Origin: an uncultured Holophagales bacterium
GTDB lineage: Bacteria; Acidobacteriota; Thermoanaerobaculia; Multivoradales; UBA5704
Reading direction: 5' to 3'
DNA: 64,000 nucleotides
Assembly: GCA_963842525.1 (NCBI GenBank)
Contig: CAWJGT010000019.1
Span: 384,001 to 448,000, forward strand
Shown here: one piece after another, positions 6,302 through 40,812 of the stretch
How positions within the stretch are numbered: position 1 is the stretch's first letter
Layout of the letters: every line of letters begins with the position of its first letter
Position numbers and translations under genes: made by a program
The notes under the pieces: model-generated
What the model was told of the DNA's origin: nothing
Database searches by the model: none
Seen by the model: only the letters and a program-made list of their open reading frames with translations

Positions 6302-6390
6302 GTAGAGACGCCCTAGTCCACGACCACCACGCTTGTGGCAACCCCTGCGGCCAGGGCGTCTCCAAGGCCCCCGCAACCTCCAACGCCCCG
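6302..6390 (+). repeat. GTAG-type REP-like palindromic element, copy 1
   Basis: GTAGAGACGCCCT...AGGGCGTCTC stem; similar to the reverse complement of 9291-9377. Confidence 0.65.
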
Positions 6391-7003: not shown

Positions 7004-7320
7004 GAAATGGGGACCATGTCTCTCGGAGGCGACACAACGAGCCCTTGGACGAAGACGATGCCTCTTCGAGCGGGCCTGGGATGACGAAGGAAGCTCTCCT
7101 CGCCTGCTGCTGTGCACTCGGCCATCCTCACAATTTGGCGGCTTGGAGAGGTCGACGCACTGCCTGCAGGAACATACCCCGCACAGCTACACGCCACAAT
7201 CACAGGTAGCCCGCAACCGGATGACATCGGCAAGGTGGTCTTCGCCATTGACCGGGCTTTTCGCTTCGACCTCAAGAAGGTTCAACCTCAAAAGTAGGCG
7301 GCGAGGAGATGGGCGAGAAG

Positions 7321-9290: not shown

Positions 9291-9377
9291 GGGGGTGTTG
9301 GGGGTGGCGGGGGCCTTGGAGACGCCCTGGCCGCGGTGGTTGCCACACGCGCGGTGGTCGCGGACTAGGGCGTCTAC
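9291..9377 (-). repeat. GTAG-type REP-like element, copy 2 (inverted relative to 6302-6390)
   Basis: Reverse complement GTAGACGCCCTAGTCCGCGACCACC...CCAGGGCGTCTCCAAGGCCCCCGC matches copy 1. Confidence 0.65.
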
Positions 9378-9579: not shown

Positions 9580-11818
9580 ATGGGATTGAGGCAATCGGTG
9601 GGGTCGAACGCGGTGCTTGTGCAGTCGCTGCGGCTGCTTCTGGTGGCGGGGATTCTTGCCGCCGGGCCCCTGGCCGGCGCGGAATGGCCGGCTTGGCGTG
9701 GGCCGGCGCAGACGGGCGTCTCGCCCGAGACCGGGCTGGTCTCGAAGTGGTCTCCGGCCGGGGAGAACCTGGTCTGGAGGGCGGACCTCGTCGGCCGCTC
9801 GACTCCGGTGGTCTTCGACGGCCGGGTGTGCGCCAACGGCCGCACCGGCGAGGGGATCACCAAGCAGGAGTACGTGGCCTGCTGGGACGCCGGCAGTGGC
9901 AAGAAGCTCTGGGAGCACTACCTCGACGTCTACCTCACCTCGGTCCCTTTCAACCGCGTGGGATGGGCCAGCGTGGTGGGCGACACCGAGACGGGCAACC
10001 TCTACGTCCACGGGGTCGGCGGTCTGCTGGTGGCGTTCGACCGCGCCGGCAAGATCGTCTGGCAGCGGTCGCTCACCGAGGAATTCGGCTTCTACTCGGG
10101 CTTCGGCGGGCGGACCCATACGCCGATGATCGACGAGGACCGGCTCGTCCTCTCCTTCGTGAACACGGGCTGGGGTGAGCAGGGGCCGCCGCGCAACCGT
10201 ACCTTCGCCTTCGACAAGAAGACGGGCGCGCTTCTCTGGGTCTCGACGCCGGGCGGCAACCCCTATGACCTGAACACCCAGACGACGCCGGTCGCGGCCG
10301 TCATCAACGGCCAACGCCTGCTCATCGAGGGGAACGTGGACGGCTGGGTGCATGCCATCAAGGCGCGCACCGGCGAGAAGGTCTGGAGCTTCCAGCTCAC
10401 CAAGGGCGGGATCAACACCACGGTGGTCGTCAACGGCACGATGGTCTATGCCGCGCACAGCGAGGAGAACCTGGACTCGGCGATCATGGGCCGGGTGGTG
10501 GCGATCGATGCCACGGGCACGGGCGACGTCACCAAGACCCACGAGCGCTGGCGGTCTGAAGGGCTCGGGGATGGCTTCCCCTCGCCCATGATCCACGACG
10601 GCCGGCTGTATGTGGTGGACAACTCGGCCAACCTCTTCGCGCTGGATGCCGCGACCGGCAAGGAGCTGTGGCGGCACAAGCTGGGGACGGTCGGCAAGGC
10701 GTCGCCCGTCTGGGCGGACGGCAAGATCTATGTCACCGAGACCAACGGGCGCTTCCACATCCTGAAGCCGAAGGCGGACGGGGTCGAGACGCTGGACATG
10801 GACGAGATCTCGGTGACCGATGCCGGCGGAACCCACTACGCCGAGATCTACGGCTCGCCCGCCATCGCCTACGGCCGCATCTATTTCACGGCGGAGTCGG
10901 GGATCTACTGCCTCGGCGACAAGTCGAAGCCGTTCCAGGTCACCCGTGACAAGCCGGCCGTGCTGCCCGGGGAGGCCGCCGCGAAGGGTGCGCCGGCGGT
11001 CCTCCAGGTGGTCCCGGCGGAGGTGCTGATCCGGCCGGGCGAGACGGCGCGGTTCGAGGTGCGCGCCTTCGACGCTCAGGGCCGCTCTGTGCCTGTCTCC
11101 GGACGCTCCGGAGTGGGCGCTCCAGGGGCTCGCCGGTAAGGTCGAGGGCGGCGCCTTCACGGGCGAGGCGGGTCGCCCGCAGGCCGGCAAGGTGGCGGCG
11201 AAGCTCGGTGGGCTGGAGGCGGCGGCCCGGGTGCGCGTCGTCCCTCCTCTCCCGTGGAGCTACGACTTCGAAGCCGTCGAGGTCGGCAAGACGCCGCCCT
11301 GGTGGATCGGCGCCGGCCTCAAGTTCCCGGTCAAGGAGATGGATGGCGGGAAGGTCCTCTCGAAGCCCCCGGTGGCGGTGGGGCTTGACCGTTCGGACGT
11401 CTTCCTGGGTCCCCCGGCGCTCTCCAACTACACCATCCAGGCGGACCTGCGAGGTGCGATCAAGGGACGGCGCCGGCCCGACGTGGGCCTGGTCAACGGC
11501 GGCTACACGCTCGACCTGATGGGCGCGCACCAGAAGGTGCAACTGCGCGCCTGGGCCTCCGAGCTGCGGCTGGAGAAGTCGGTCGACTTCAAGTGGGACC
11601 CCGACATCTGGTACACGATGAAGTTCCGGGTCGACCAGCAGGGAAATAAAGCCTTGCTTCGCGGCAAGGTCTGGCCCACGGGCCAGCCGGAGCCGGCGGA
11701 GTGGACGATCACCGCCGAAGACCCCAAGCCGGTCCGCCAGGGGAGCCCCGGGATCTACGGGTACTCGGCCGCCGAGATCTATTACGACAACCTGAAGGTG
11801 ATGGGAAACCAGCAATGA
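9580..11818 (+). CDS. Secreted PQQ-like (BamB-type) beta-propeller protein with C-terminal Ig-like and lectin-like domains; frameshift near 11090-11100
   Basis: Signal peptide, EWPAWRGP, repeated DxxTGKxLW blades; ORFs 9580-11139 and 11192-11818 join via ..PEWALQGLAGKVEGG.. Confidence 0.75.
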
Positions 11819-13284
11819 CCACGAAGATAAAAGGTTTTGTCCAGGGCGGCCTGTTGGCGGCGGCTCTCCTGACGGCGGCTAGCAGCGGGGCGCAGGTGGA
11901 GATGTTCGGCGGCGATCCGTCGCGCAACATGGCGTCGGACGAGAAGGGGCTGCCCACGAAGTTCGATCCCGAGTCCGGCCTGAACATCAAGTGGTCGGCC
12001 GCGCTCGGCTCGCAGAGCTACGGCGGCCCGATCGTGGCCGGCGGCAAGGTGTACGTCGGCACCAACAACGAAGGGCTGCGCAACCCCAAGCTGACCGGCG
12101 ATCGCGGGGTGCTCATGGCCTTCAATGCCGCCGATGGCAAGTTCATTTGGCAGGCGGCCTATCCCAAGCTGCCGGCGGGCCGGGTCAACGACTGGCCGCT
12201 GCAGGGGATCTGCTCGAGCCCTGCCGTGGAGGGCGACCGGATCTATTACGTGTCGAACCGCGCCGAGGTGGTCTGCGCCGACACCGAAGGTTTCCTCGAC
12301 AAGGAGAACGACGGCCCGATCGCCAATGAGGCCGAGAAGAGCGATATCGACGAGGACGTGGTCTGGAAGTACGACATGATCGCCGAGCTCGACGTCTTCC
12401 CGCACAACCTGGCGGCCGGCAATCCGCTGATCGTGGACGACATGCTCTTCACGGTGACCGGCAACGGCGTGGACGAGGGGCACATCAACATCCCGTCGCC
12501 GACCTCGCCGAGCTTCATCGCGCTCGACAAGAAGACGGGCAAGCTCCTCTGGGAGAATTCGCTGCCCGGCGAGAAGATCCTGCACGGCCAGTGGTCGAAT
12601 CCCTCCTACGGCGTGATCAAGGGCAAGCCGCAGGTCGTGTTCGCCGGCGGCAACGGCTGGATCTATTCGTTCGAGCCCAAGACCGGCAAGCTGATCTGGA
12701 GCTTCGACTGCAACCCCAAGGACGCGATCTGGAAGATCGGCGGCGCGGGCACGCGCAACTACATCATCGCCACGCCGGTGATCTATGACGACAAGGTCTA
12801 TCTCGGCGTCGGCCAGGACCCCGAGCACGGCGAGGGGATCGGCCATCTCTGGGTGGTCGATGCAACGCAGGAGGGTGACGTCACCGGCAAGGCCGTGGTC
12901 TGGCACCGCGGCGGCGAGGACTTCCACCGCACGCTCTCGACCGTGGCGATCGCCGACGGCATCGTCTACGCGTCCGACCTCACCGGTCACCTCCATGCTC
13001 TCGACGCCAAGACCGGGGAGGAGCTCTGGGTCTATGACGCGTTCGCCGCGATCTGGGGCTCTCCCTTCGTCGCCGACGGCAAGGTCTACCTGGGGGACGA
13101 GGACGGCGACATCGTGGTGCTGCGCGCGGGCAAGAAGAAGGAGCTGCTGCACGAGGTGAACATGGGCAGCTCGGTCTACACCACGCCGGTGGCCAAGGAC
13201 GGCGTCCTCTACATCAACACCCGGGCGAAGCTCTTCGCCATCGCCGAGGGCGCCGGCAAGCAGCCGGAGCCGAAGAAACCGTGA
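11815..13284 (+). CDS. Secreted PQQ-like beta-propeller protein
   Basis: Signal peptide, MFGGDPSRN, ALDKKTGKLLWE repeats; ATGA overlap with the previous gene. Confidence 0.85.
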   Translation: MTTKIKGFVQGGLLAAALLTAASSGAQVEMFGGDPSRNMASDEKGLPTKFDPESGLNIKWSAALGSQSYGGPIVAGGKVYVGTNNEGLRNPKLTGDRGVLMAFNAADGKFIWQAAYPKLPAGRVNDWPLQGICSSPAVEGDRIYYVSNRAEVVCADTEGFLDKENDGPIANEAEKSDIDEDVVWKYDMIAELDVFPHNLAAGNPLIVDDMLFTVTGNGVDEGHINIPSPTSPSFIALDKKTGKLLWENSLPGEKILHGQWSNPSYGVIKGKPQVVFAGGNGWIYSFEPKTGKLIWSFDCNPKDAIWKIGGAGTRNYIIATPVIYDDKVYLGVGQDPEHGEGIGHLWVVDATQEGDVTGKAVVWHRGGEDFHRTLSTVAIADGIVYASDLTGHLHALDAKTGEELWVYDAFAAIWGSPFVADGKVYLGDEDGDIVVLRAGKKKELLHEVNMGSSVYTTPVAKDGVLYINTRAKLFAIAEGAGKQPEPKKP

Positions 13285-13291
13285 GACCGGA

Positions 13292-14388
13292 ATGGTGGAC
13301 ACCCTGACGCAATCCCCTCTCGCCGCAAAGGTGGCCGCGGCGCGCGACCGCCTCGACGCCCATGTGCGCGAGATGGTCGCCTGGCACTTCGACCCGGCGA
13401 CCGGCTGCCCGTTCTGGCTGGAGCGCGCGGCGAGCCTCGGCTTCGATCCCCGCAAAGAGGTGCGCGGGTACGACGATCTCAAGCTGTTCGGTCACTTCGA
13501 GGACTCGTGGCTGCGCGGCGGCCCGGTGCGGCGGTGGATGCCCAAAGGCTTCGAGGGCCGGCCGGCGCATGTCTTCGAGACCGGCGGCTCGACCGGAGTG
13601 CCCAAGACGCGGGTCAACATCGAGGACTTCCGGATCGATTATGAGATGTACAGCGACAGCCTGTCCGAGGAGGGTTTTCCGCACGGCGCGGACTGGCTGA
13701 TGCTGGGGCCCACCGGGCCGCGCCGCCTGCGCCTGGCGGTCGAGCACCTGGCGCAGCACCGCGGCGGCATCTGCTTCCACGTCGACCTCGATCCGCGCTG
13801 GGTCAACAAGCTGATCAAGGACGGCCGGCCGCGCGAGCTGGCGGCGTACAAGGCGCATGTGATCGAGCAGGGGCTCACGGTCCTGCGCGCTCACGACATC
13901 CGGTGCCTGTTCACCACGCCCAAGCTGCTGGAAGCGCTGTGCGAACGGATCTCGCTCCAGAAGGCGGGCATCCGCGGCATCTTCTGCGGCGGCACCGAAA
14001 TGAATGCTCAATTCCACCGCTTCGCCCGCGAGGAGCTGGTGCCGGGGATCGACTTCGTCCCCACCTATGGCAACACGCTGATGGGGCTCGCCCGCTCGCT
14101 GCCGTACGATCCCGCGGCAAAGGAGCCGTGGGCCATCACCTACTATCCGCCGGCGCCGCGCGCGGTGTTCGAGCTGGTGAAACCTGATGATCCCGAGACG
14201 CCGGTCGAATATGGGGAGACCGGGCGGGTGATGCTGACCACGCTGACCCATGATTTCTTCATGCCGCGCTTCCTCGAGCGCGATGAGGGGGAGCGGGCCG
14301 AGCCCACGGAGCGCTTCCCTGGGACGGCGTGCGCAACCTGCGGCTTCTGTCGTCGCTCCAGGAATCGGTCATCGTGGGAGTCTATTGA
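13292..14388 (+). CDS. Short ANL-type adenylation enzyme (PaaK/LuxE-like); frameshift near 14315
   Basis: P-loop ETGGSTGVPK, YGNT, GETGRVMLTTL; corrected C-terminus PWDGVRNLRLLSSLQESVIVGVY* ends in a TGATG overlap with the next gene. Confidence 0.65.
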
Positions 14389-15960
14389 TGCTCCAGCTTC
14401 CGATCCTCCGCGCCGGTCAGGCCTATCACAGCCTCGACAAGGCACCCTTGCGTGATGCACGCACGGGGGAGACGTTGGCCGAGGTGTCGCAGGCGAACCC
14501 CGGTCTGATCGCGCGGGATCTCAAAGATATCGAGGCGAGCGGCCGGGCGCTCCGGGAGCTGGGCACCGCCGAGCTGGTGGCGATCTGCCGCCGGGCCGCG
14601 GCTCTCTTCATGGAAGCCGATCTGCCGCTGAATGACAATGTTTTGCAATCCCCGGCCGACTACGTGCGCCGGCTCTCCGCCACCTCGGGGCTGCCCGAGA
14701 CGCTCTGCCGCGCCAACATGGAGAAGGTCCGTGCCACGCTCGACGGCATGGAGGCGGTGCTCGACGGGTTGACGCGCGGGCTCGATCCCGCCGTGCTCGA
14801 CACGGGCTGGGGCTGGCAGGACGGCCGGAGGCTCGAGCTATCTCCGCCAGGCCGATGTGCTGGGAGCGATCCTGCCCAGCAACTCGCCGGGCGTCAACAC
14901 TCTCTGGATGCCGGCGATCGCGCTCGGCATGCCGGTGGCGCTCAAGCCCGGCCGCGAGGAGCCCTGGACGCCGCTGCGCATCGTCCGCGCCCTCGCCGCC
15001 GCAGGCTGTCCGCCGCAGGCGCTGGGCTTCTACCCGACCGATCACGCCGGCGCCTCCGAGATCCTGCTGCGCTGCGGCCGGTCGCTCCTCTTCGGCGACG
15101 CGGGGACGGTCGGTCCCTGGCGCGACGATCCGAGGGTGCAGATCCACGGCCCCGGCTTCAGCAAGGTGATCTTTGGAGACGATCAGCTTCCGGTCTGGGA
15201 AGCGTACCTCGACCTGCTCGTCGCCAGCATTGCGGACAATGGCGGACGCTCGTGCCTGAACGCCTCAGGGGTCTGGGTGCCGCAGGGCGGGCGGGGGCGC
15301 GAGATGGCCGAGGCGCTCGCCGGCCGGCTGGCGGCCATCGAGGCGCGCCCGCTGGACGATCCCGCTGCACGGCTCGCGGCTTTTACCCGGCCCGAGACGG
15401 CGCAATGGATCTCGGAACGGATCGACCGGATGCTGAGCATCCCGGGCGCCGTGGACCTCACAGCGAAGATGCGCGGGAGCGGGCGCGTGGCGGAGGCCGG
15501 CGGCTGCACGTTCCTGCTGCCGACCCTGATCTGGTGCGACGACGCGGACCATCCGCTGGCCAACACGGAGCTGCTGTTCCCCTTTGCCGGCGCCGTCGAG
15601 GTGCCGCGGGAAGAACTGCTCGACCGGATCGGCCCTTCGCTGGTGGTGACGGCGCTCACCGAAGACCCGGCCTTCCAGCGCGAGCTGCTCGGCAGTCCGT
15701 GGATCGACCGGCTGAACCTGGGCGCGGTTCCGACCTCGCGGATCGCCTACGACCAGCCGCACGAGGGGAATTTGTTCCAGCACCTTTATCGGCAGCGGGC
15801 GTTCCAGAGCCCTCACCCCCCTGGCCCCCCTCTCCCATCCTCACACCCTATCCCCCGGGAGAGGGGGGAAGAGAGCAGTCCCCAACTCCCCTCTCCCGGT
15901 GGCTCGGGTGTGCGGATGGGAGAAGGGCCGGGGGTGAGGGGCCCGGAGGCTCAGCCATGA
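14388..15960 (+). CDS. Aldehyde dehydrogenase/acyl-CoA reductase (LuxC-like); frameshift near 14838
   Basis: LPSNSPG, LKPG, GPGFSK, NGGRSC (catalytic Cys), ELLFP; N-terminal half in ORF 14250, C-terminal half in ORF 14857. Confidence 0.75.
15810..15940. repeat. Palindromic CCCTCACCCC...GGGGTGAGGG element read through by the ALDH C-terminus
   Basis: Terminal inverted repeats CCCTCACCCCCTGGCCCCCCTCTCCCATCC / GGATGGGAGAAGGGCCGGGGGTGAGGG; second copy at 30680. Confidence 0.85.
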
Positions 15961-17114
15961 TGGCGGCCCAGGTCATGGCTGCGGCGCCGGTGGGCACCGA
16001 GTCCTGGAGCGCCGAGATCGGCTCGATCCGGGTCCATTTCGGTCCGGGGTCGATCGAGCAGCTCGGCGACCTTGCTCGTGAGATGGGCGGGAGCCGCGTG
16101 CTGGTGGTCACCGATCCCGGAGTGCGCGCGGCGGGGTATGCCGAGCGGGCCATGCGGGTGCTGCAGGGGGAAGGGATCGAGGCCTCCGTTTTCGATCAGG
16201 TTTCGGAAAATCCCACGACGGTGGACGTGGAGGCAGGCCGGGATTTCGCCGCGGAACGGCGGATCGACCTGGTGGTCGGGCTGGGCGGCGGCAGCGCCAT
16301 GGATTGCGCCAAGGGGATCAATTTCCTTTTGACCAACGGCGGACGCATGGAGGACTACCTCGGCTTCGGCAAGGCTTCGCGGCCGATGCTGCCGTCGATC
16401 GGCGTGCCCACCACGGCCGGCACCGGTAGCGAGGCGCAGTCCTATGCGTTGATCTCGCAGGCGGAGACTCACCGCAAGATGGCCTGCGGCGACCGCAAGG
16501 CGCGCTTCCGTGAGGTGATCCTCGACCCGGACTTCTGCGCAACGGCGCCCCAGAGGGTGCGGGCCGCGACGGGGATCGATGCCGTCTCCCACGCGGTCGA
16601 GAGCTTCGTCTGCACCCGCGCGAACCCGGTCTCGCGGATGTTTGCGCGCGAGGCCTGGCACCTCCTGCAGCGGAGCTTCGACATCTCGTCGTCGGGTCCG
16701 GGTCCACTTGGCGACATGCTGATGGGCGCCCACCTCGCCGGCGCCGCCATCGAGGGCTCGATGCTGGGCGCGGCCCACGCCTGCGCCAATCCGCTGACCG
16801 CCCGTTTCGGCGTTGTGCACGGCGTGGCCGTGGGGCTGATGCTGCCGCACGTGGTCCGCTTCAACGGCGAGGTCGCCGCGGAGCTGTACCGGGATCTGTC
16901 GGGCGGCTCGGCCGAGGTCCTGGTCCGGCGGATCGAGGAGCTGCGGTCCGCGGCGGGCCTGCCCACCCGGCTGCGCGATGCTCTCGGCAGGGACCTGGAC
17001 CGGCAGACCCTTCGCGAGCTGGCCGAGGACGCGGCAGGGCAGTGGACGGCACGCTTCAATCCGCGTCCGGTGGAGGCGGGGGATCTGCTTCGGCTGTACG
17101 AGGTGGCGTTGTGA
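15957..17114 (+). CDS. Iron-containing alcohol dehydrogenase
   Basis: GLGGGSAMDCAK, PTTAGTGSE, DAVSHAVE, HACANPL...HG metal ligands. Confidence 0.9.
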   Translation: MMAAQVMAAAPVGTESWSAEIGSIRVHFGPGSIEQLGDLAREMGGSRVLVVTDPGVRAAGYAERAMRVLQGEGIEASVFDQVSENPTTVDVEAGRDFAAERRIDLVVGLGGGSAMDCAKGINFLLTNGGRMEDYLGFGKASRPMLPSIGVPTTAGTGSEAQSYALISQAETHRKMACGDRKARFREVILDPDFCATAPQRVRAATGIDAVSHAVESFVCTRANPVSRMFAREAWHLLQRSFDISSSGPGPLGDMLMGAHLAGAAIEGSMLGAAHACANPLTARFGVVHGVAVGLMLPHVVRFNGEVAAELYRDLSGGSAEVLVRRIEELRSAAGLPTRLRDALGRDLDRQTLRELAEDAAGQWTARFNPRPVEAGDLLRLYEVAL

Positions 17115-18451: not shown

Positions 18452-18457
18452 GCAGTC

Positions 18458-19798: not shown

Positions 19799-19815
19799 TC
19801 GATCGGGGGACTGAC

Positions 19816-21036: not shown

Positions 21037-21044
21037 ATAAACCC

Positions 21045-23231: not shown

Positions 23232-23235
23232 GCTC

Positions 23236-24543: not shown

Positions 24544-24767
24544 AAAAGCCCGCATGGAAGTGGCCGCTCTATGCGGCTTTGGCGGTGCTCTACCTGCTGC
24601 ACAACGACCTGTGGCTGTGGAATGATCCGTCCCTGGTCTTCGGCATGCCGGTGGGGATCGCCTACCATGTGGCCTTCTGTGCCGCCACCTCGATCGTGCT
24701 CACGCTGCTGGTGATCTACGCCTGGCCGGAGCACCTGGACGCCGAGGCGGAGGAGAGGCGGCCTTGA
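24540..24767 (+). CDS. Small membrane protein (DUF3311-like), symporter partner
   Basis: Two TM segments, LLHNDLWLW...VFGMPVG; directly upstream of the SSS gene. Confidence 0.7.
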   Translation: MKKPAWKWPLYAALAVLYLLHNDLWLWNDPSLVFGMPVGIAYHVAFCAATSIVLTLLVIYAWPEHLDAEAEERRP

Positions 24768-26226
24768 CCCTCGCGATCATTGCCGTTTATCTCGTCGCCG
24801 TGCTGGTGATCGGCATCTTCAGCCACCGCTTCTTCCGCGGCACGAGCGAGGACTGGTTCGTCGCCGCCCGCACGCTGGGTCCGTTCATCCTCCTGGTCTC
24901 GCTGTTCGGCGCCAACATGACCGCCTTCACCCTGCTCGGCGCCTCGGGCGAGGCGTACATGGAAGGGATCGGCGTCTTCGCGCTGATGGCCTCCTCGTCG
25001 GCGCTGGTCATCCCGACGGTCTTCTTCTTCGTGGGCACAAGGGTCTGGGCCCTGGGCAAGCGGCGCGGCTATCTCACGCCGGTCCAGCTCTTCCGCGAAC
25101 GGTGGGGTTCGGACGCGCTGGGGTTGCTCATCTTCATCGTACAGATCGCCCTTCTTGTTCCCTATCTGCTGATCGGAGTCATGGGCGGCGGCATCACCCT
25201 GACCCAGGTGACGGACGGGCAGGTGCCCGACTGGGTCGGCGGCCTCGTCATCTGCGTCGTGGTGCTCGCCTATACGACCTACGGCGGGATGCGGGGGACG
25301 ATCTGGGTCAATGTCTTTCAAACGGCCGTGCTGATCGCCCTGGGATCGATCGCCTTCTGGGTGATCGTCCACAAGCTCGGCGGCCTGGAAGACGCCATGG
25401 CGCGGGTGGCCGCGAGCCATCCGGACATGCTGATCCGGGGGGAGCACATCCAGCCCTGGAAGCTGCTGACCTACACCTGCATCCCGCTGTCGGTCGGCAT
25501 GTTCCCTCACATGTTCGTCCACTGGCTGACGGCGCGCAGCGCGGGCGCCTTCCGCGCGCCCCTGGCCTTCTACCCGGTCTGCATCGCCATCGTCTGGGTG
25601 CCGAGCGTAGTGCTGGGCGTGCTCGCCCGCCCGGATTTCCCGAACCTGAACGCGGCGGCGGCCAACTCGGTGCTGGTCAAGATGATCGACCTCTACGCTC
25701 CGGGGTTCCTCGCCGGGCTGCTCGCTGCCGGCGTCTTCGCCGCGATCATGAACTCTTTCGATTCGCAGGTGCTCTCGGCGGGCACCATGTTCACCCAGGA
25801 CATCGTGCGCCATTACGGCTTCCACGACCGCATGAGCGAGAGCAAGCAGATCATGGTGGGCCGGCTGTTCATCGTCGGCATCCTGATCGCCACCTACATC
25901 CTGTCGCTGTTTGTCGACCGCAGCATCTTCAAGCTCGGCGTCTGGTGCTTCACGGGCTTCGCCGCGCTCTTCCCCGTGGTGGTCGCGGCTCTGTTCTGGA
26001 AGCGCAGCACCAAGTGGGGGGCGTTCGCCTCGACGTGTTGTCGGTCATCGTGCTCTGGCTCTATTTCGTGCGCGTGGGGTGGAATTCCGCCGACTACACG
26101 ATCGGCGGCAGCGGCATCATGCCGGTGGCGGTGATGCTGGTGGTCTCGACCCTCGCCATGATCGTGGGATCGCTGCTGACCCGGCCGCCGGAGCGTGCGG
26201 TCCTTGCGAACTTCTTCCCGCAATGA
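24764..26226 (+). CDS. Sodium:solute symporter; frameshift near 26033
   Basis: Multi-TM, YGGMRG, AAIMNSFDSQ; last TM helices continue in ORF 25102-26226. Confidence 0.85.
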
Positions 26227-26233
26227 AACCGCA

Positions 26234-27535
26234 ATGAAAATCGCCTACATCGCGGCAGGTGCCGGCGGAATGTACTGCGGCACCTGCCTGCACGACAACA
26301 CGCTGGCCGCCGCGTTGCAGCGAAGGGGGCACGACGTCGCCCTGGTGCCGACCTACACGCCGATCCGGACCGACGAGCCCGGCGTGAGCATCGACCGGGT
26401 CTTCTTCGGCGCCGTCAACGTCTACCTGCAACAGAAGATCACAGCCTTCCGGAGCCTGCCGCTGTTCGATCGTCTGCTCGACCGGCCCGGCCTGCTGCGC
26501 CAGGCCGCCAAGCTGGGCGGGTCGACCGATCCCACGTCGCTCGGCGCCCTCACGTTGTCCGTTCTCAAGGGGGAGGACGGCTTCCAGGCCCGCGAGCTGG
26601 CGAAGCTCGTTGACTGGCTGCGCGACGATTTCCGCCCCGAGATCGTCCACCTGACCAACTCCATGTTTGCCGGCTTCGCGCGCACCTTGAAGCGCGAGCT
26701 GGGCGTGCCCGTCCTCTGCTCGCTCCAAGGCGAAGACCTGTTCCTCGACCAGCTCCGCGAGCCCTGGAAAGAAAGGGTTTTCGCGGTGCTGCGCGAACGG
26801 GCGCGCGACGTCGACGCCTTCCTGGTGAACAGCCGCTGGTACGGCGACACCATGGCGGCCTGCCTGGACGTGGAGCCGGAGCGGATGCGCGTCATACCGC
26901 TGGGCGTCTCGCTGGACGGCTATGAGAAGGACAGCGCGCCCGGCGTCTCTGGAGACCCCGGAGATTACCGGCCGCTGACGATCGGCTATCTCGCCCGCAT
27001 CTGTCCCGAAAAGGGGCTTCACGTCCTGGTCGAGGCCTTTCGTCTTCTGACCGCGAGCGAGCCGGGCCCGGTACGGCTCGCCGTGGCCGGCTGGCTCGGG
27101 GAACGGGACCGCTCCTATTTCAAGGACATCCAGGAGCGGATCGCCGGCTGGGGGCTCTCCGGCTTTGTCGAGCACGCCGGCGAGCTGGACCGCGATGGCA
27201 AGCTCCGTTTCCTCCACGGCCTCGATATCCTCTCCGTGCCGACCACCTACAAGGAGCCCAAGGGTCTGTTCGTCCTGGAGGCGCTGGCGAGCGGCGTGCC
27301 GGTGGTGGAGCCGCGGCATGGCAGCTTTCCGGAGATGATCGAGGCGACCGGCGGCGGCGTGCTCGTCGAGCCCGGCTCGGCCGAGGCGCTTGCCGAGGGG
27401 CTGCGGTCGCTGCTGCGCGATCCGGAGAAGCGGCGGGCATTGGGCAGGCAGGGCCGCGAGGCGGTCCACGCCGAGTTTGATGATGAGACGATGGCGAATC
27501 GGACGCTCGCGGTCTATCGAGACGCAATGGGGTGA
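26234..27535 (+). CDS. Glycosyltransferase family 4 with N-terminal CxxC
   Basis: MYCGTCLHD; GYLARICPEKG; EPKGLFVLEALASGVPVV. Confidence 0.85.
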   Translation: MKIAYIAAGAGGMYCGTCLHDNTLAAALQRRGHDVALVPTYTPIRTDEPGVSIDRVFFGAVNVYLQQKITAFRSLPLFDRLLDRPGLLRQAAKLGGSTDPTSLGALTLSVLKGEDGFQARELAKLVDWLRDDFRPEIVHLTNSMFAGFARTLKRELGVPVLCSLQGEDLFLDQLREPWKERVFAVLRERARDVDAFLVNSRWYGDTMAACLDVEPERMRVIPLGVSLDGYEKDSAPGVSGDPGDYRPLTIGYLARICPEKGLHVLVEAFRLLTASEPGPVRLAVAGWLGERDRSYFKDIQERIAGWGLSGFVEHAGELDRDGKLRFLHGLDILSVPTTYKEPKGLFVLEALASGVPVVEPRHGSFPEMIEATGGGVLVEPGSAEALAEGLRSLLRDPEKRRALGRQGREAVHAEFDDETMANRTLAVYRDAMG

Positions 27536-27536
27536 C

Positions 27537-27950
27537 ATGCACGAATTCCGGACGCAGCGCAGGGTCGAGTTCTCGGACACCGACGTGGGGGGCATCGTCC
27601 ACTTCGCCCGCTTCTTCGTCTTCATGGAGACCGCCGAGCACGAGTTCTTGCGCGCCCTGGGCACCAGCGTCCACCTGGACGTCGACGGCCAGAAGATCGG
27701 CTGGCCCAGGGTTTCGGCCACCTGCGAGTACCTGTCGCCGGCCCGCTTCGAGGAGGTGCTGGACATCCTGGTCCGGGTGGAGCGGAAGGGGAGCAAGTCG
27801 ATGACCTATGGGTTTGAGATCACCCGCGGTGAGACGGCTATTGCACGCGGCAGGATCACTTCGGTCTGCTGCATCCTGAACGCGCCTGGAGGGGTGAAAG
27901 CCATTCCCATTCCCGACTTCCTCGCCGATCGGATCGAGGAGGCGCCGTGA
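27537..27950 (+). CDS. Hotdog-fold acyl-CoA thioesterase
   Basis: RVEFSDTDVGGIVHFARFF motif. Confidence 0.85.
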   Translation: MHEFRTQRRVEFSDTDVGGIVHFARFFVFMETAEHEFLRALGTSVHLDVDGQKIGWPRVSATCEYLSPARFEEVLDILVRVERKGSKSMTYGFEITRGETAIARGRITSVCCILNAPGGVKAIPIPDFLADRIEEAP

Positions 27951-28630
27951 GGCTCCTCCTCCGCGACGTCTCCAAGCACTTCGACACCGCCGCCGGCCCC
28001 GTCGCGGTGCTGCGCGGCATCTCCTTCGAGATGGCGGAAGGAGAGGCGCTCTGTGTGATGGGGCCGTCGGGGTCGGGCAAGAGCACGCTTCTGCACCTGA
28101 TCGGCACCCTGGACCGGCCGTCGTCAGGAGTCATCGAGATCGACGGCCGCGCGCCGCATGGGCTGTCCGAGCCGGAGCTGGCCCGCTTCCGCAACCGGTC
28201 GATCGGCTTCGTCTTCCAGGACCCGCACCTGCTGCCGCAGTACTCGGTGCTGGAGAACGTCCTGATCCCGACCCTGGCCTTTCCGCAGAAGGGAGACGAC
28301 CCGGCGGCGCACGAGGCGCGGGCGCGGGAGCTGCTGGACCGCGTCGGGCTCGGCCACCGGCTCGGCCACCGGCCGGCCGAGCTGTCGGGCGGCGAGCGTC
28401 AGCGGGCCGCGGTGGCCCGGGCGCTGATCTACCGGCCCGGCCTGCTGCTCTGCGACGAGCCCACCGGGAGCCTCGACCGCGCCGCCGCCGCTGCCGTGGC
28501 GTCGCTCCTCTTCGAGCTGCACGAGGCGGAGAAGGCCATCCTCCTGGTGGTGACCCACAGCCTGGACCTCGCCGGCCGCTTCGCCCGGCGCGGCGAGTTG
28601 GTGGAGGGACGGCTGTCCTGGTCCGCATGA
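27947..28630 (+). CDS. ABC transporter ATP-binding protein (LolD/MacB-like)
   Basis: GPSGSGKST, LSGGERQR, LLCDEPTG. Confidence 0.92.
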   Translation: MRLLLRDVSKHFDTAAGPVAVLRGISFEMAEGEALCVMGPSGSGKSTLLHLIGTLDRPSSGVIEIDGRAPHGLSEPELARFRNRSIGFVFQDPHLLPQYSVLENVLIPTLAFPQKGDDPAAHEARARELLDRVGLGHRLGHRPAELSGGERQRAAVARALIYRPGLLLCDEPTGSLDRAAAAAVASLLFELHEAEKAILLVVTHSLDLAGRFARRGELVEGRLSWSA

Positions 28631-31600
28631 CGGCTTTCCGGTCGCTGCTCTTCTTCTGGCGCGAGAGCCTCGCCGTGCTCCTCGGCACGGCCGTGGCTTC
28701 TACGGTCCTGACGGGTGCGCTCCTCGCCGGCGATTCCGTCCGCGGCAGCCTGCGCGATCTGACCCTGGAGCGGCTGGGGCGGATCGACCTCGCGCTGGTC
28801 TCCGAAGGCTTTTTTCGCGAGAAGCTGGCTGAGGATCTGGGTGGAGCGGCGCCGGCCCTGGCGGCTCGCGGCTCCGCCGTCCATGGCGGCTCGCAGGCCC
28901 GCGCCTCGCGGGTGGAAATCTGGGGCGTGGACGACCGTTTCGCGAAGCTGTACGGCGCTCGCGGCGGCGAGCTCGGCTTCACGACAGGTCAGATTTTCCC
29001 GCCGCTGGTCGTCAACGAGACGCTCGCCCGCGAGCTGGGCGCACGGACGGGGGACGAGGTCCTCCTCTCCTTCGGGACGGCCAGCGAGATTCCGCGCGAG
29101 ACCCTGCTCGGGGAGAAAGACCCGGGCGAGCTGTTGACCACCCGCCGTTTCACCGTGGCGCGGGTGATTCCCGACCGCGGTATCGGCCGTTTCGGCCTCG
29201 CGGCCCACCAGCAGAGGCCGCGCAACGCCTTCGTGCCGCTCGCCGAGCTGCAACGGGCGTTGGAGCAGGAAGGGCGGGCCAACGCCCTCTTTGCTGCCGA
29301 CGGAGCGAAGTTGCCGCGCCGGATCGTCCAGCTCGAAGACCTGGGGCTCACCCTGCGCCGCGGTCCCGGCGTCGTGGTGTTGGAGAGCCGCGAATTCTTT
29401 CTGAAGCCGGCCGCGATCGAGGCCGCGGGTGCGCTGGCCAAGGAGATGGGTGTCCCGGCGCAGCGGGTGCTCACCTACCTCGCGACTCGCCTGGAAGCGC
29501 GAGGACGGCTCGTTCCGTACTCCCTCGTCGCGGCAGTCGATGCATCGGGGGCCCGACCAGGAGAGATCCTGCTCGATCGTTGGGCTGCCGACGACCTCGG
29601 TGTTGTTCCCGGCGAACCCATCGCGCTGACCTGGCTGGCGCCGGGCCCGGGCGGCACACTGCTGGACAAGAAGGCCACTCTGCGCCTGGGCGGGATCGTC
29701 GAGATGTCCGGCCTTGCCGTGGACCGCACCCTGACGCCCCGGCTCGCTGGCGTTGACGAGGCCGAGGACATGGCCGGCTGGGACCCGCCGTTCCCGGTGG
29801 ACCTCTCCCTAATCCGCCCCCGGGACGAGGCCTTCTGGGACGAGCACGGTCCGACCCCCAAGGCCTTTGTCGCCGAGGAGACCGGCCGTCGCCTGTGGAG
29901 CAGCCGTTTCGGCGATACCACCTCCTTGCGGTTCGCCATCCCACCTGGCGCCGATCCGGCCCGTTTGGAAGAAAGAATTCTTCGCGAGCTGCCGCAGCGG
30001 ATCGACCTCGCCGCGTTCGGCCTCCAGCTCCGGCCGGTCAAGCAGCAGGGGCTGGAAGCGGCGGAGGGGGCGACCGACTTTGCCGGCCTCTTCCTGGCCT
30101 TCAGCGTCTTCCTGATCGCCTCCGCCGCGATGCTCGCAGGGCTCCTGTTCAGCCTCGGCGTCGAACGCCGCGCAGGCGAGCTCGGCCTGCTGCTCGCCGT
30201 GGGCCATCCCGTCCGGGCCGTGCGCCGCCGGCTTCTCCTAGAAGGAGCCGTGCTGGCGGCTGTCGGCGCGCTGCTGGGGCTGGCCGGCGCCGTGGGCTAT
30301 GCCGCCCTGCTCATGGCCGGCTTGCGTACCCTGTGGCTGTCCGCGGTGGGGACGCCCGACCTCTTCCTCCACGTGGAGCCATCGAGCCTGATCGTGGGTT
30401 GGCTCTCCTCGGTGCTCGTGGTCCTCCTGGCGATCTGGCTCACCGTGCGCCGCCTGGCGAAGATCCCCTCTACCGCGCTCCTCGCCGGCTCGACAAGCCT
30501 TCCCGTCGCACGGAAGGTCCGGAGGCGCTGGCCGGTCTGGGTGCTGACGGGGACCGGTGTGCTGCTCGTCGCCTGGGGACTTCTGTCGCGGGAGGCCTCG
30601 CCAGGACTGTCGTTCGCTCTGGGTGCGTGGGCTCTGGTGGCGGGGTTGGTCGCATTCTCAGGGTGGTATCGGCGGGGGACCCTCACCCCCCTGGCCCCCC
30701 TCTCCCATCCGCACTCCCTTCCCCCGGGAGAGGGGGGAAAGAAAAGGTTTTCACTCCCCTCTCCCGGGGGTTTGGGAGTGCGGATGGGAGAGGGGCCGGG
30801 GGTGAGGGGTCTCCTCGGCATGGCTGCCCGCAACGGCGCCGCCAACCCCGGTCGAAGCCTCCTCTCCGTCGCCCTCGTCGCCTGCGCCTGCTTCGTCCTG
30901 GTCGTCGTGGCCGCGAACCGCCGAGGCGGCGCTGTTCACGGGGAGGAAGGCGGCGGCGGCTTTCCGCTGCTCGCCGAGTCGGACATCCCCCTGCTGCATG
31001 ACCTCGACCGCCCCGAGGGACGGATGGAGCTGGGTCTGATGGAGGACGAGCTGCAAGGCGCCTCCATCGTCTCCTTCCGCGCCGTCCCTGGCGAGGACGC
31101 GAGCTGCCTCAACCTGTACCGGCCGTCCCGTCCCCGCCTGCTCGGCGTTCCGTCGGGCTTCGCGGAGCGCAGCCGCTTCTCGTTCCAAGAGGGCTCCTGG
31201 GGCCTGCTGGAGAAGGACCTCGGACCGAATGTGATTCCGGCGGTGGCCGACGCGGGCTCGGCGCAGTGGATCCTCCATCTCGGGTTGGGCGACGACCTGG
31301 TCCTGGAGAGCGAAACGGGCGCGCCGGTCCGCCTCCGGCTGGTCGGTCTGCTCGGCAAGAGCATCTTCCAGAGCGAGCTGCTGATCTCGGAGGCGAATCT
31401 GCTGCGGCACTTCCCGAGCCGCGCCGGAAGCTCCTTCTTCCTGATCGGCGCTCCCGCCTCCCGCGAGACGCAGATCGCCCGGGTGCTGGAAGAGGGACTG
31501 CAGGACTACGGCTTTGACGTCACGACCACTGCCGAGCGCATGGCGTCCTTCCAGGCGGTCGAGGAGACCTACCTGGCGACGTTCCAGACCCTGGGCGGCC

Positions 31601-31950
31601 TCGGTCTGCTGTTGGGCACCCTGGGCCTCGGCGTGGCGCTGTTGCGCGGCGTGACCGAGCGCCGGGGAGAGCTGGCGACCCTACGCGCCTTCGGCTTCCG
31701 CCGCCGCCGGCTCGCCGGCCTGGTGACGGCCGAGAACGCCTTCCTGCTGTTCGCCGGGGTCGCCCTCGGCACCGTGGCCGGAGGCCTCGCGGTTGCGCCG
31801 CACCTGCTGTCCAGCGCGGACCGGATTTCCTGGCCCTCCCTGCTGCTCACCCTCCTGGCGATCCTCGCCGCGGGGCTGCTCTCCTGCGTCGCCGCCGTGC
31901 GCAGCGCCCTGCGCGCGCCGCTGCTGCCGGCGCTCAAAGCGGAAAGATGA
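28627..31950 (+). CDS. ABC exporter permease (duplicated FtsX/MacB-type)
   Basis: Two periplasmic+TM halves; ERRAGELGLL and ERRGELATLRAFGF motifs. Confidence 0.85.
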   Translation: MTAFRSLLFFWRESLAVLLGTAVASTVLTGALLAGDSVRGSLRDLTLERLGRIDLALVSEGFFREKLAEDLGGAAPALAARGSAVHGGSQARASRVEIWGVDDRFAKLYGARGGELGFTTGQIFPPLVVNETLARELGARTGDEVLLSFGTASEIPRETLLGEKDPGELLTTRRFTVARVIPDRGIGRFGLAAHQQRPRNAFVPLAELQRALEQEGRANALFAADGAKLPRRIVQLEDLGLTLRRGPGVVVLESREFFLKPAAIEAAGALAKEMGVPAQRVLTYLATRLEARGRLVPYSLVAAVDASGARPGEILLDRWAADDLGVVPGEPIALTWLAPGPGGTLLDKKATLRLGGIVEMSGLAVDRTLTPRLAGVDEAEDMAGWDPPFPVDLSLIRPRDEAFWDEHGPTPKAFVAEETGRRLWSSRFGDTTSLRFAIPPGADPARLEERILRELPQRIDLAAFGLQLRPVKQQGLEAAEGATDFAGLFLAFSVFLIASAAMLAGLLFSLGVERRAGELGLLLAVGHPVRAVRRRLLLEGAVLAAVGALLGLAGAVGYAALLMAGLRTLWLSAVGTPDLFLHVEPSSLIVGWLSSVLVVLLAIWLTVRRLAKIPSTALLAGSTSLPVARKVRRRWPVWVLTGTGVLLVAWGLLSREASPGLSFALGAWALVAGLVAFSGWYRRGTLTPLAPLSHPHSLPPGEGGKKRFSLPSPGGLGVRMGEGPGVRGLLGMAARNGAANPGRSLLSVALVACACFVLVVVAANRRGGAVHGEEGGGGFPLLAESDIPLLHDLDRPEGRMELGLMEDELQGASIVSFRAVPGEDASCLNLYRPSRPRLLGVPSGFAERSRFSFQEGSWGLLEKDLGPNVIPAVADAGSAQWILHLGLGDDLVLESETGAPVRLRLVGLLGKSIFQSELLISEANLLRHFPSRAGSSFFLIGAPASRETQIARVLEEGLQDYGFDVTTTAERMASFQAVEETYLATFQTLGGLGLLLGTLGLGVALLRGVTERRGELATLRAFGFRRRRLAGLVTAENAFLLFAGVALGTVAGGLAVAPHLLSSADRISWPSLLLTLLAILAAGLLSCVAAVRSALRAPLLPALKAER
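30680..30808. repeat. CCCTCACCCC palindromic element inserted in frame in the permease
   Basis: ~129 bp, same inverted ends as 15810-15940; translated as TLTPLAPLSHPHSLPPGEGG...RMGEGPGVR. Confidence 0.85.
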
Positions 31951-31959
31951 GGTGATTTC

Positions 31960-32469
31960 ATGAGCTGGCTCGGTTTCGCCCTGATGACCGTCGTCTCCTG
32001 GGGGCTCTACGGCGTCTTCCTGCACACCGGCCAGACGGCCATGGCCGATCCGGTGAGCGGGCGTTATAAGGCCTTTCTTTTCGTCGGCCTCGCCTACTTC
32101 CTGACCGCCGTGCTGGCGCCCCTGTTCGTCCTCAAGGTCCAGGGCGCCTCGTGGGCGTTTCCCGGGCGAGGCATGGCCTGGTCGCTCCTGGCCGGCACCG
32201 TCGGCGCCATCGGGGCCTTCTGCGTCCTCCTCGCCTTCGGCGCCAAGGGAAGCCCGAGCGTCGTCATGTCCATCGTTTTCGCCGGTGCCCCCATCGTGAA
32301 CGCCCTTGCCGCCTGGGTTTTCCATCCGACGAAGCTGCGCTGGCAGTTCCTGGTGGGGCTCCTCCTCGCCGCCCTCGGCGCCTTCCTGGTCACGCTCTAC
32401 CGGCCGGCTCCCACCCCGCCGCCCCCGACCCAAGCCATGAGGAACAGAGGAACAGAGGGACTCTCTTGA
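31960..32469 (+). CDS. Small multi-TM membrane protein (EamA/DMT-like), copy 1
   Basis: About five hydrophobic helices; near-identical to 40813-41310. Confidence 0.75.
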   Translation: MSWLGFALMTVVSWGLYGVFLHTGQTAMADPVSGRYKAFLFVGLAYFLTAVLAPLFVLKVQGASWAFPGRGMAWSLLAGTVGAIGAFCVLLAFGAKGSPSVVMSIVFAGAPIVNALAAWVFHPTKLRWQFLVGLLLAALGAFLVTLYRPAPTPPPPTQAMRNRGTEGLS

Positions 32470-40808: not shown

Positions 40809-40812
40809 TTTC

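Follow-up and report, generated by a model that had tools for sequence, protein, structure and literature searches.

A conserved accessory operon with a candidate halogenated aryl-acid tailoring pathway and secreted propellers in an uncultured Thermoanaerobaculia bacterium

In the phenazine pathway of Pantoea agglomerans that leads to D-alanylgriseoluteic acid, EhpF and EhpG reportedly turn a ring carboxylate into an aldehyde. EhpF is an ANL-family adenylating enzyme of about 360 aa without the ANL C-terminal domain, and a gene of the aldehyde dehydrogenase (ALDH) family directly follows ehpF. The same neighbours, ehpF (AMP-binding, 1062 nt) and ehpG (ALDH family, 1371 nt), are given for a Proteus phenazine operon in the accessible part of its description (PMC11278526). 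Planctomycetales strain 10988 makes 3,5-dibromo-p-anisic acid and has a chorismate lyase gene adjacent to a halogenase gene (baaA-baaB); as far as the accessible text of the preprint goes, the baa locus was never verified genetically and no methyltransferase was found in it (bioRxiv 10.1101/723874). In sponge microbiomes, clusters that combine a flavin-dependent halogenase with an AMP-binding enzyme have been named ‘Halo_AMP’ clusters. According to the accessible portion of that preprint, they occur in Acidobacteriota, Latescibacterota and Poribacteria, frequently carry PQQ-like domains, radical S-adenosylmethionine (SAM) enzymes, TonB transporters, glycosyltransferases and thioesterases, and have no product assigned, the authors focusing on a P450-containing variant and a barettin hypothesis (bioRxiv 10.64898/2026.08.03.742642). 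The subject of this study is an operon of 17 genes (g01–g17) at 9580–32469 of a 64,000-nt stretch of DNA (positions 384,001–448,000 of contig CAWJGT010000019.1; hereafter the window) from an uncultured Holophagales bacterium of the class Thermoanaerobaculia, whose genome comprises 9.9 Mb in 34 contigs and is 96.4% complete. The operon falls under the Halo_AMP definition, its halogenase gene (g10) and adenylating-enzyme gene (g03) being found 9 kb apart in one operon. The likeness is one of class description, as far as the published clusters are described in the accessible text, rather than of confirmed identity; the genome here is a soil-type Thermoanaerobaculia genome, and no P450 is present.

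The operon is real, conserved and accessory, has no described product, and is not a heme, pyrroloquinoline quinone (PQQ), β-barrel assembly machinery (BAM) or Lol system. It is best placed among the halogenated aryl-acid tailoring pathways, with unusual secreted propellers and transporters. Literature searches (PQQ-like plus halogenase plus radical SAM plus TonB; Poribacteria plus halogenase; EhpF/EhpG) returned no functional study of the cluster and no matching characterised pathway. The original prediction, made from the sequence alone, had presented it as an undescribed system; this stands for the product and has to be qualified for the gene content, since similar Halo_AMP clusters are described in the accessible part of a preprint (bioRxiv 10.64898/2026.08.03.742642).

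With the HemN-like radical SAM enzyme (g07) as seed, one genome per species was scanned. At least 599 stretches matched, of which at least 574 code for a relative, and the 80 best loci were analysed further. Around the seed, up to 10 kb per side was searched with the window proteins by tblastn, and matches in the same orientation were counted. The resulting counts are lower bounds, because contigs are often short and any gene lying farther than 10 kb away is invisible. The secreted propeller encoded by g06 (propeller 3) was found in 68 of the 80 loci, the iron-containing alcohol dehydrogenase (Fe-ADH, g05) in 60 and the halogenase in 53. These are followed by propeller 4 (g08, 33 loci), the ALDH (g04, 32), the TonB-dependent receptor (TBDR, g09, 21), propeller 2 (g02, 20), the sodium:solute symporter (SSS, g12, 19), the EhpF-like adenylating enzyme (g03, 18), propeller 1 (g01, 15), the GT4 glycosyltransferase (g13, 14), the ABC ATPase (g15, 14), the FtsX permease (g16, 9), the thioesterase (g14, 4) and the EamA protein (g17, 2). 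A PaaK-like ligase is found alongside the radical SAM gene in 51 loci. Same-order synteny was found across several phyla, in 80 loci of Thermoanaerobaculia, Poribacteria, Latescibacterota, KSB1 and others, and the arrangement is far beyond chance. The recurring core consists of the radical SAM enzyme, the flavin-dependent halogenase, an adenylating enzyme, the Fe-ADH and one secreted BamB-like propeller.

Thermoanaerobaculia, Poribacteria, Latescibacterota and Planctomycetia all show strong conservation of gene order. The copies in Thermoanaerobaculia are near-complete, and two relatives from this class, when extended downstream, carry the GT4, ABC, FtsX and EamA genes in order, with the thioesterase gene absent. 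In Latescibacterota, the order is ALDH, Fe-ADH, propeller 3, radical SAM enzyme, up to three copies of propeller 4, TBDR, PaaK-like ligase, halogenase, DUF3311 protein, SSS and GT4. Most Poribacteria have the Fe-ADH, propeller 3, the radical SAM enzyme, a PaaK-like ligase, the halogenase and a TAXI-type binding protein. Some of them add propellers 1 and 2, EhpF-like and ALDH-like enzymes and a benzoylformate-decarboxylase-like thiamine pyrophosphate enzyme, as well as a creatininase-family protein, Kelch and YWTD propellers and an Rv2949c-like chorismate lyase. Bryobacterales retain a three-gene unit of radical SAM enzyme, halogenase and PaaK-like ligase in otherwise unrelated surroundings, with no propeller nearby. 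The view that the cluster is built around its four propellers is therefore not upheld, given this trio and the wide retention of propeller 3 only. A poribacterial query found no PaaK-like ligase in the genome that harbours the window, the lone match (E 5e-4) lying inside a giant open reading frame (ORF); the EhpF-like enzyme is therefore the only ANL enzyme of the pathway in this genome.

A phylogenetic profile was built from 41 genomes, namely the genome itself, five of the same genus, 19 of the family and 16 of the order. A radical SAM orthologue (59–77% identity) is present in 19 of them, while all other full-length matches are at most 32% identical. The distribution of the halogenase orthologue (53–75% identity) is identical: all 19 of these genomes have it and the 22 others lack it, three of the 22 having only paralogues of about 40% identity. 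The EhpF-like orthologue nearly follows this pattern, being found in 17 of the 19 cluster genomes and in none of the 22 others. Within the genus, the set is present in four of six genomes. The cluster is accordingly accessory and patchy in distribution. In the planctomycete class that holds locus L071 (a Pirellulaceae metagenome-assembled genome, MAG), 60 of 81 sampled genomes have a radical SAM orthologue, at 46–64% identity. Twenty loci from this class, mostly on long contigs, were counted for genes within 10 kb of the radical SAM gene, which gave propeller 3 in 15, the Fe-ADH in 12, the ALDH in seven, the EhpF-like enzyme in five and the halogenase in four. At three planctomycete loci, L106 (10680–15328), L109 (7736–9275) and L112 (10493–12324), the radical SAM gene is followed by genes for a GcvH-like protein with the lipoyl-carrier fold and a 4Fe-4S protein. 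In L106 these are followed by another radical SAM enzyme and a squalene-hopene-cyclase-like protein, and an animal-haem-peroxidase-family gene lies close by in L109.

ORF, Pfam and NCBIfam scans bore out the gene order and orientation of the original prediction: all long ORFs with family matches between 9580 and 32469 are on the + strand. The genes number 17 instead of the 16 first given. Overlapping or near-abutting junctions, also claimed, hold for most gene pairs, which overlap or are separated by less than 20 nt, but not for the two spacers flanking the Fe-ADH gene, of about 150 nt (ALDH/Fe-ADH) and about 234 nt (Fe-ADH/propeller 3). Each of these spacers holds a small repeat element recovered by repeat search, to which no strand applies: a palindromic element resembling repetitive extragenic palindromes or miniature inverted-repeat transposable elements (REP/MITE-like) at 15827–15941, and an inverted-repeat element at 17135–17346. 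As predicted, the Pfam scan found no polyketide synthase, non-ribosomal peptide synthetase (NRPS) or carrier-protein domains among the cluster proteins, which is why standard cluster-finding rules miss the operon.

The halogenase gene g10 (23236–24543) encodes a short protein of 435 aa. Its best solved relatives in a PDB search are all halogenases, namely 8zop (6e-62), CndH (3e1t), CmlS (3i3l), PltA (5dbj) and Bmp2 (5bva). These phenol and pyrrole halogenases show 30–45% similarity to g10 over the flavin domain and share with it all four signature motifs and the Lys. GxGxxG, Lys70, WxWxIP and FxDPxxSxG are kept in 53 of 54 orthologues. The FAD motif reads GGGPAG (residues 9–14; conserved in 53–54 of the 54), and WxWxIP, which we take to be a halogenase signature, reads WFWYIP, its W, W, I and P being retained in 53. 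Lys70, likewise kept in 53, aligns with position 76 of the CndH chain and position 91 of the CmlS chain, presumably the catalytic lysines. The C-terminal domain of CndH and CmlS is missing from g10, which scores 191 against the CmlS equivalog (cut-off 900). A literature search on structure 8ZOP found no paper. Together, the motifs and closest structures support g10 as a true-looking flavin-dependent halogenase, as the original prediction of a halogenase-like flavoenzyme had it. Because the cluster has no carrier protein, its substrate would be free, a CoA ester or enzyme-bound. A reading of the flavoenzyme and dehydrogenase genes as archaeal-type ether lipid genes (glycerol-1-phosphate (G1P) dehydrogenase plus geranylgeranyl reductase) was rejected, as g10 carries the halogenase motifs and the Fe-ADH scores 23.5 bits against G1P dehydrogenase versus 236 against ErcA-type alcohol dehydrogenases.

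The product of the seed gene g07 (18458–19798; Pfam Radical_SAM and HemN_C) belongs to a distinct subfamily of HemN-like radical SAM enzymes. Among solved structures it is related only to HemN (PDB 1olt; 8.5e-35) and the class C methyltransferase NocN (PDB 9p2u; 6.9e-31), with which it shares the radical SAM core and the HemN_C domain. Unlike either, it carries an invariant N-terminal motif of its own, F-V-x-N-Y, which along with CxxxCxxC and GGGTP is conserved in all 80 orthologues. The residues after the third Cys of the cluster motif are Y-F, where E. coli HemN presumably has x-C. The enzyme falls below every NCBIfam equivalog cut-off examined (HemN, HemW, HemZ, ChuW/HutW and STM4012), with 175.8 against 324.95 for HemN (TIGR00538), 151.2 against 205.4 for HemW and 171 against 400 for ChuW/HutW. 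For a stored g07 homologue, the ESM Atlas offered only generic ‘coproporphyrinogen oxidase family’ and HemW clusters. Orthologues are 48–77% identical across phyla, and full-length paralogues are at most 32% identical. It is not the housekeeping HemN copy, its orthologue being absent from 22 of the 41 relatives; a separate HemN-like gene, 30% identical to g07, is found on another contig (C25) of the genome. A role in heme acquisition or anaerobic heme degradation was considered and discarded: the ChuW/HutW score does not exceed those of HemN or STM4012, the receptor is missing from the cluster in most phyla, and no other gene of the cluster fits.

Three consecutive genes point to the activation and reduction of a carboxylate. 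The product of g03 (13292–14391) matches the EhpF crystal structures 3l2k and 3hgu at E 2e-47 over residues 19–354 and, like EhpF, lacks the ANL C-terminal domain; its intact orthologues are 352–387 aa long. Homologues on plasmids are annotated as AMP-binding protein, phenazine biosynthesis protein or arylcarboxylate reductase, and on a plasmid of Streptomyces sp. Mg1 the EhpF-like gene is directly followed by an ALDH gene and then by DAHP synthase and PabB genes. The start of g04 (14388–15960; Pfam Aldedh) overlaps the g03 stop codon, an order that repeats that of ehpF and its ALDH-family neighbour. The EhpG-like g04 product is 33% identical (E 2e-32) to this Streptomyces ALDH. The Cys of its GGRSC motif is conserved in 33 of 36 orthologues, and the usual position of the general-base Glu reads (L/M)LFG(G/D), the Glu not being conserved; a retained Cys without the general base is what would be expected of a reductase working in reverse. 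For intact orthologues of g03 and g04, complex prediction gave a score of 0.75 versus 0.00 for the best control, with at least 78% of contacts shared between runs and partner pLDDT (the per-residue model confidence) of at least 90. The calibration, in which 116 of 157 solved complexes and two of 215 mismatched pairs attain this mark, holds only roughly for the custom alignments of 17 and 26 rows used as input. The two proteins are thus predicted to bind each other. In the product of g05 (15957–17114; Pfam Fe-ADH, 1.2e-46, and ADH_Fe_C), a group III iron-containing alcohol dehydrogenase, the Asp and three His metal ligands and a GGGS motif are conserved in all 62 orthologues. The EhpF homology, the EhpG-like ALDH, the predicted complex and the Fe-ADH ligands support the activation and reduction steps proposed in the original prediction, as far as sequence comparison and modelling can carry them. 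Unlike the EhpF/EhpG pathway, the cluster has no phenazine core genes in the Pfam scan. A literature search on EhpF/EhpG enzymology found no paper.

An aromatic substrate is suggested by the EhpF family itself, by chorismate lyase and benzoylformate-decarboxylase-like genes in cluster variants, by the phenol and pyrrole halogenases related to g10, and by the planctomycete that makes a dibromo-anisic acid. An Rv2949c-like chorismate lyase was found in three of the 80 loci, all Poribacteria variants. Four of the 20 planctomycete loci carry an ORF of 178–196 aa between the radical SAM and halogenase genes, which has about 20% identity and shared motifs with the poribacterial lyases and matches 2nwi best among PDB profiles (E 0.035); it may be chorismate-lyase-like, which these similarities do not prove. 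The arrangement in these planctomycete loci, with a chorismate-lyase-like ORF next to the halogenase gene on the same strand, resembles the baa locus and the bmp locus of Pseudoalteromonas, and the baa product, a halogenated, methylated hydroxybenzoate, is the kind of compound predicted for the cluster, as far as the accessible text describes these loci (bioRxiv 10.1101/723874). Unlike baa and bmp, the window has no chorismate lyase, and radical SAM, propeller, reductase or transporter genes do not appear in the accessible description of baa. No chorismate lyase was detected in the 96.4%-complete genome itself with PF01947, PF04345 or a custom profile (A2), and none was found with PF01947 in Pirellulaceae, KSB1, ‘Cytophagia’, unclassified bacterium and Ca. 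Multivorans genomes, for which completeness is not given. Since the genome lacks a chorismate lyase and yet has two importers, the precursor would be imported.

We regard it as about an even bet that the operon encodes an accessory pathway in which an imported aryl acid, probably hydroxybenzoate-like, undergoes halogenation, a modification by the radical SAM enzyme and reduction to an alcohol before it is glycosylated and exported. The acid, most likely of the hydroxybenzoate type, would enter through the TBDR and the DUF3311/SSS pair, and the halogenase, judging from its family and motifs, would add chlorine or bromine to the ring. The radical SAM enzyme would then make a further modification, most plausibly a methyl or other C1 transfer of the class C type, which is the weakest of the steps. 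The EhpF-like enzyme would adenylate the carboxylate and hand it to the Cys of the EhpG-like ALDH, a chemistry drawn from that of the family, to yield an aldehyde that the Fe-ADH could reduce to a benzyl-type alcohol. GT4 would glycosylate this alcohol, and the ABC/double-FtsX transporter with the small EamA protein would carry the product out of the cytoplasmic membrane. The four secreted propellers, one with a lectin-like domain, may then bind or process it, either in the periplasm or outside the cell. The original prediction of import, activation and reduction, halogenation, glycosylation and export thus stands as regards the enzymes and transporters needed, all of which are present, and the activation and reduction steps are supported; the chemistry is what we infer from them.

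Several observations weigh against this reading. The halogenase gene was found within ±10 kb of the radical SAM gene in only four of the 20 Planctomycetia loci, no search having been made elsewhere in those genomes, and halogenation may not be essential to the most widespread module. The substrate is deduced from neighbouring genes in other phyla and not from the genome itself. In the accessible text of its paper, BaaB is likened to Bmp5, a different type of flavoenzyme (bioRxiv 10.1101/723874). The radical SAM enzyme scores alike against the HemN, ChuW/HutW and STM4012 models (171–176 bits), below all cut-offs. Four of the 17 genes encode propellers without an assigned role, whose fold is shared with cofactor-less scaffolds or hydrolases. 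Conservation is lowest for the thioesterase, ABC, FtsX and EamA genes (four, 14, nine and two of the 80 loci, many with flanks that are too short), which could serve another function. Finally, the four frameshifts and the absent start codon described below would, if real, make this copy non-functional.

The genes for import and export were all found as originally predicted. The TBDR encoded by g09 (21045–23231) has both plug and barrel. It is followed, after the halogenase, by g11 (24540–24767), a small DUF3311 membrane protein of 75 aa (PF11755, 5.9e-8), and by the symporter gene g12 (24764–26226; Pfam SSF, 1.6e-37). In Poribacteria, the position of the SSS after the halogenase is taken by the TAXI-type binding protein (25 loci). 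The GT4 gene g13 (26234–27535; Glycos_transf_1, 1.1e-28) follows the SSS gene in both Acidobacteriota and Latescibacterota loci. A PDB search with g13 gave only generic GT4 relatives (sucrose-phosphate-synthase-like, MshA, BshA, PimA and a pterin glucosyltransferase), which do not indicate the acceptor. The remaining genes encode a hotdog (4HBT/YbgC-type) acyl-CoA thioesterase (g14, 27537–27950; Pfam 4HBT; TIGR00051, 69.4 bits above a cut-off of 68.7), a LolD/YbbA-like ABC ATPase (g15, 27947–28630; ABC_tran), a permease of 1107 aa with two FtsX domains, like those of type VII ABC systems (g16, 28627–31950), and a half-size EamA/DMT membrane protein of 169 aa (g17, 31960–32469; PF00892, 2.3e-8). 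Full-length g16 orthologues of about 1067–1116 aa are present in two relatives, in which an EamA gene of the g17 type follows the permease gene.

An ATPase of the LolD/YbbA type with an FtsX-domain permease is likewise found in the type VII ABC systems LolCDE, MacB and YbbAP-TesA. In YbbAP-TesA, which extracts hydrophobic compounds from the inner membrane according to the accessible part of its description (PMC12646458), a thioesterase gene lies beside ybbAP, loosely as g14 lies beside g15. Unlike TesA, g14 is a cytoplasmic hotdog enzyme and not a periplasmic SGNH hydrolase. Unlike LolCDE, the operon has a single double-FtsX permease and not a LolC/LolE pair, and g15 misses the LolD cut-off (234 versus 307.75 bits). 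For the permease g16, a PDB sequence search gave no solved chain at E ≤ 0.01.

The prominence of importers could also mean that the operon takes up an environmental aromatic acid and converts it, as in detoxification or funnelling, with no exported product and with the GT4/ABC block serving an unrelated envelope function. In its favour, two phyla have importers as an integral part of the cluster, Poribacteria carry a TAXI binding protein in place of the SSS, the genome itself lacks a chorismate lyase, and the block from GT4 to EamA is the least conserved part. Against these points, the Pfam scan found no ring-cleavage, β-oxidation-like or ring-reducing enzymes in the cluster, a true halogenase makes little sense in catabolism, the GT4 gene follows the SSS gene in both Acidobacteriota and Latescibacterota, and some variants make the precursor themselves. 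Uptake and conversion without export is thus an unlikely explanation.

All four propellers have Sec-type signal peptides and no lipobox Cys, as judged from their N-termini and, for propeller 3, from those of its orthologues too. Propeller 1 (g01, 9580–11818; Pfam PQQ_2, 2.6e-30), propeller 2 (g02, 11815–13284; PQQ_2, 6.3e-31; N-terminus resembling a signal peptide) and propeller 4 (g08, 19816–21036; PQQ_2, 9e-48) are PQQ_2/BamB-like. Propeller 3 (g06, 17348–18451) is an eight-bladed PF13570 propeller (Beta-prop_ACSF4, 185 bits against a cut-off of 133). Against the PQQ-dependent dehydrogenase model TIGR03075, the propellers score 45–87 bits over short repeat stretches only (cut-off 480), and against BamB (TIGR03300) 61–161 bits (cut-off 285). 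The AlphaFold2 model of propeller 3 (pLDDT 95) has eight blades, and Foldseek matched it to BamB, YxaL and tetrathionate hydrolase, cofactor-less eight-bladed proteins with which it superposes at TM scores of 0.75–0.85. Identity to these is only 19–23%, and propeller 3 scores 160.6 against the BamB equivalog (cut-off 285.2). Unlike BamB, the propellers lack a lipobox Cys and lie in a genomic context unrelated to BAM. The PQQ-like propellers of the original prediction are better described as cofactor-less BamB/YxaL-type folds, far below the PQQ-dehydrogenase cut-off. Propeller 1 has a C-terminal domain of 208 aa (model pLDDT 87) whose top Foldseek matches are the galactocerebrosidase lectin domain, the ERGIC-53 carbohydrate recognition domain and the carbohydrate-binding module (CBM) CBM66; the model fits a concanavalin-A-like lectin/CBM jelly roll, which would be compatible with a sugar-bearing ligand and proves nothing. 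Propeller 2 is 62–84% identical in the 20 loci that have it, propeller 4 occurs in up to three tandem copies in Latescibacterota, and propeller 3 is the one most constantly linked to the radical SAM gene.

This linkage (68 of 80 loci and 15 of the 20 planctomycete loci) and the high conservation of the propellers between phyla (propeller 2 reaching 67% identity) would also be expected if the operon supplied the propellers with a new cofactor or ligand, either a small molecule or derived from a protein, with the flavoenzyme and the radical SAM enzyme as maturases, an idea advanced speculatively in the original prediction. Weak similarity of g10 to the quinone-cofactor maturases QhpG, LodB and GoxB (115, 83 and 77 bits, below cut-off) points the same way. 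It is nevertheless improbable, more so than uptake and conversion, in view of the intact halogenase motifs of g10, including WxWxIP, the Sec export of the propellers and their modelled cofactor-less folds, the Bryobacterales trio, and the absence of a precursor peptide or SPASM-type enzyme from the Pfam scan.

The receptor raises the question of a metallophore, a halogenated or hydroxylated aryl compound exported by the ABC transporter and re-imported metal-loaded by the TBDR. g09 belongs to the siderophore-receptor subfamily, passing the TIGR01783 cut-off (256 versus 223.5 bits) with the catecholate receptor Fiu as its nearest equivalog; exporter and importer share one operon, and the accessible text of the sponge preprint remarks on TonB transporters in such clusters (bioRxiv 10.64898/2026.08.03.742642). 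A metallophore is nonetheless very unlikely, as the Pfam scan found no NRPS, NRPS-independent siderophore synthetase or catechol-forming enzymes, the Poribacteria and Planctomycetia versions have no receptor, and a reductase or esterase that could release the metal is likewise absent.

An extracellular cycle between aryl alcohol and aryl acid, to which we give similarly little weight, would use the receptor differently. A halogenated, methylated benzyl-type alcohol, possibly a glycoside, would be exported and bound or oxidised beyond the cytoplasm by the secreted cofactor-less propellers, one with its lectin domain, and the TBDR and symporter would retrieve the oxidised acid, which EhpF/EhpG and the Fe-ADH would re-reduce at the expense of ATP and NAD(P)H. 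Fungi secrete chlorinated anisyl alcohols as redox mediators, and the cycle would be a bacterial counterpart. If it is true, the HemN-like enzyme would supply the methyl group that is lacking in the dibromo-anisic-acid locus, a new reaction for the enzyme class.

Least likely of all is an envelope glycolipid, in which the thioesterase would free a fatty acid for LuxE/LuxC-style reduction to a fatty alcohol, glycosylation and Lol/DevCA-like ABC export, a logic that resembles heterocyst glycolipid export and for which the thioesterase, GT4, LolD/DevA-like ATPase (DevA 151 bits), FtsX permease and EamA protein are all present: this alternative of the original prediction is disfavoured by the EhpF-like nature of g03, whose homologues stand in aromatic and phenazine contexts and include proteins annotated as arylcarboxylate reductase, by the lack of LuxC/LuxE family matches and of fatty-acid enzymes or synthesis genes in the Pfam scan, and by the rarity of the thioesterase (four of 80 loci; absent in two close relatives), and it leaves the halogenase and the radical SAM enzyme unexplained.

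The state of this particular copy was judged against the intact orthologous locus L012, relative to which the window has four frame changes that the original prediction does not mention, near 11089 in g01, near 14318 in g03 (where a tail of about 25 codons is shifted), at about 14836–14867 in g04 and near 26036 in g12, the last directly after a run of six G. The orthologues of g01 are single ORFs of about 740 aa in which propeller and C-terminal domain are joined. For propeller 3, no ATG, GTG or TTG was found just upstream of the signal peptide, and the sole in-frame canonical start lies at 17042, 100 codons upstream. Seven public read runs hold small shares of the stretch (≤0.12), and four of them were examined. 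Contigs of about 90%-identical relatives from soil metagenomes have one base fewer at 11103 (two runs) and 14834 (two runs), and so stay in frame where the window carries an additional base. Four near-identical pieces (≥99%, from run X1) span none of the frameshift sites. The orthologous loci L014 and L027, both from long-read MAGs, also have frame breaks in several genes, which suggests that indel errors are common in long-read records. The frameshifts in the window are either long-read assembly errors or real lesions.

The REP/MITE-like palindromic element of about 115 nt is present in two copies with 72% identity. The copy in the g04–g05 spacer, into which the g04 ORF continues, lengthens that reading frame by about 45 codons, and the second (30695–30809) lies in frame within g16 and reads as a Pro/Gly-rich loop. 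The inverted repeat in the g05–g06 spacer has 45-nt arms that are 82% complementary, and the signal peptide of propeller 3 begins right after it. At the downstream end of the operon, a direct repeat of 300 nt (31949–32248 and 40802–41101, 96% identity) duplicates the start of the EamA gene, the first ~290 nt of g17 recurring at 40802–41101, where a second full copy occupies 40813–41310. The two EamA copies flank an 8.3-kb stretch of lower G+C content (54–62%) with a TPR protein, ORFs without family match and a weak IS200-like hit; the stretch resembles an inserted island. Shortly before the start of the cluster, 84-nt inverted repeats (6306–6389 and 9292–9375, 90% complementary) enclose 2.9 kb with a DinB-family gene and ORFs without family match. 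Elsewhere in the window, tandem arrays are found at 38376–38863 (61/41/20-nt pattern) and, with 42-nt periods, at 6689–7066 and 62388–62627, and five dispersed 60-nt repeats with a YD/Rhs-repeat look lie inside a long coding region at 49312–51063.

The enzyme set is widespread, with radical SAM orthologues in 60 of the 81 planctomycete-class genomes, in 19 of the 41 genomes of the profile, and in Poribacteria, Latescibacterota and KSB1. Solving the product would reveal a halogenated aromatic compound of abundant soil and sponge bacteria, and with it an added source of natural organohalogens. It would also define a novel reaction in a distinct HemN-like branch of radical SAM enzymes and provide a first function for a family of secreted BamB-like propellers, and would test EhpF/EhpG-type two-protein carboxylate reductases as a general tool outside phenazine pathways.

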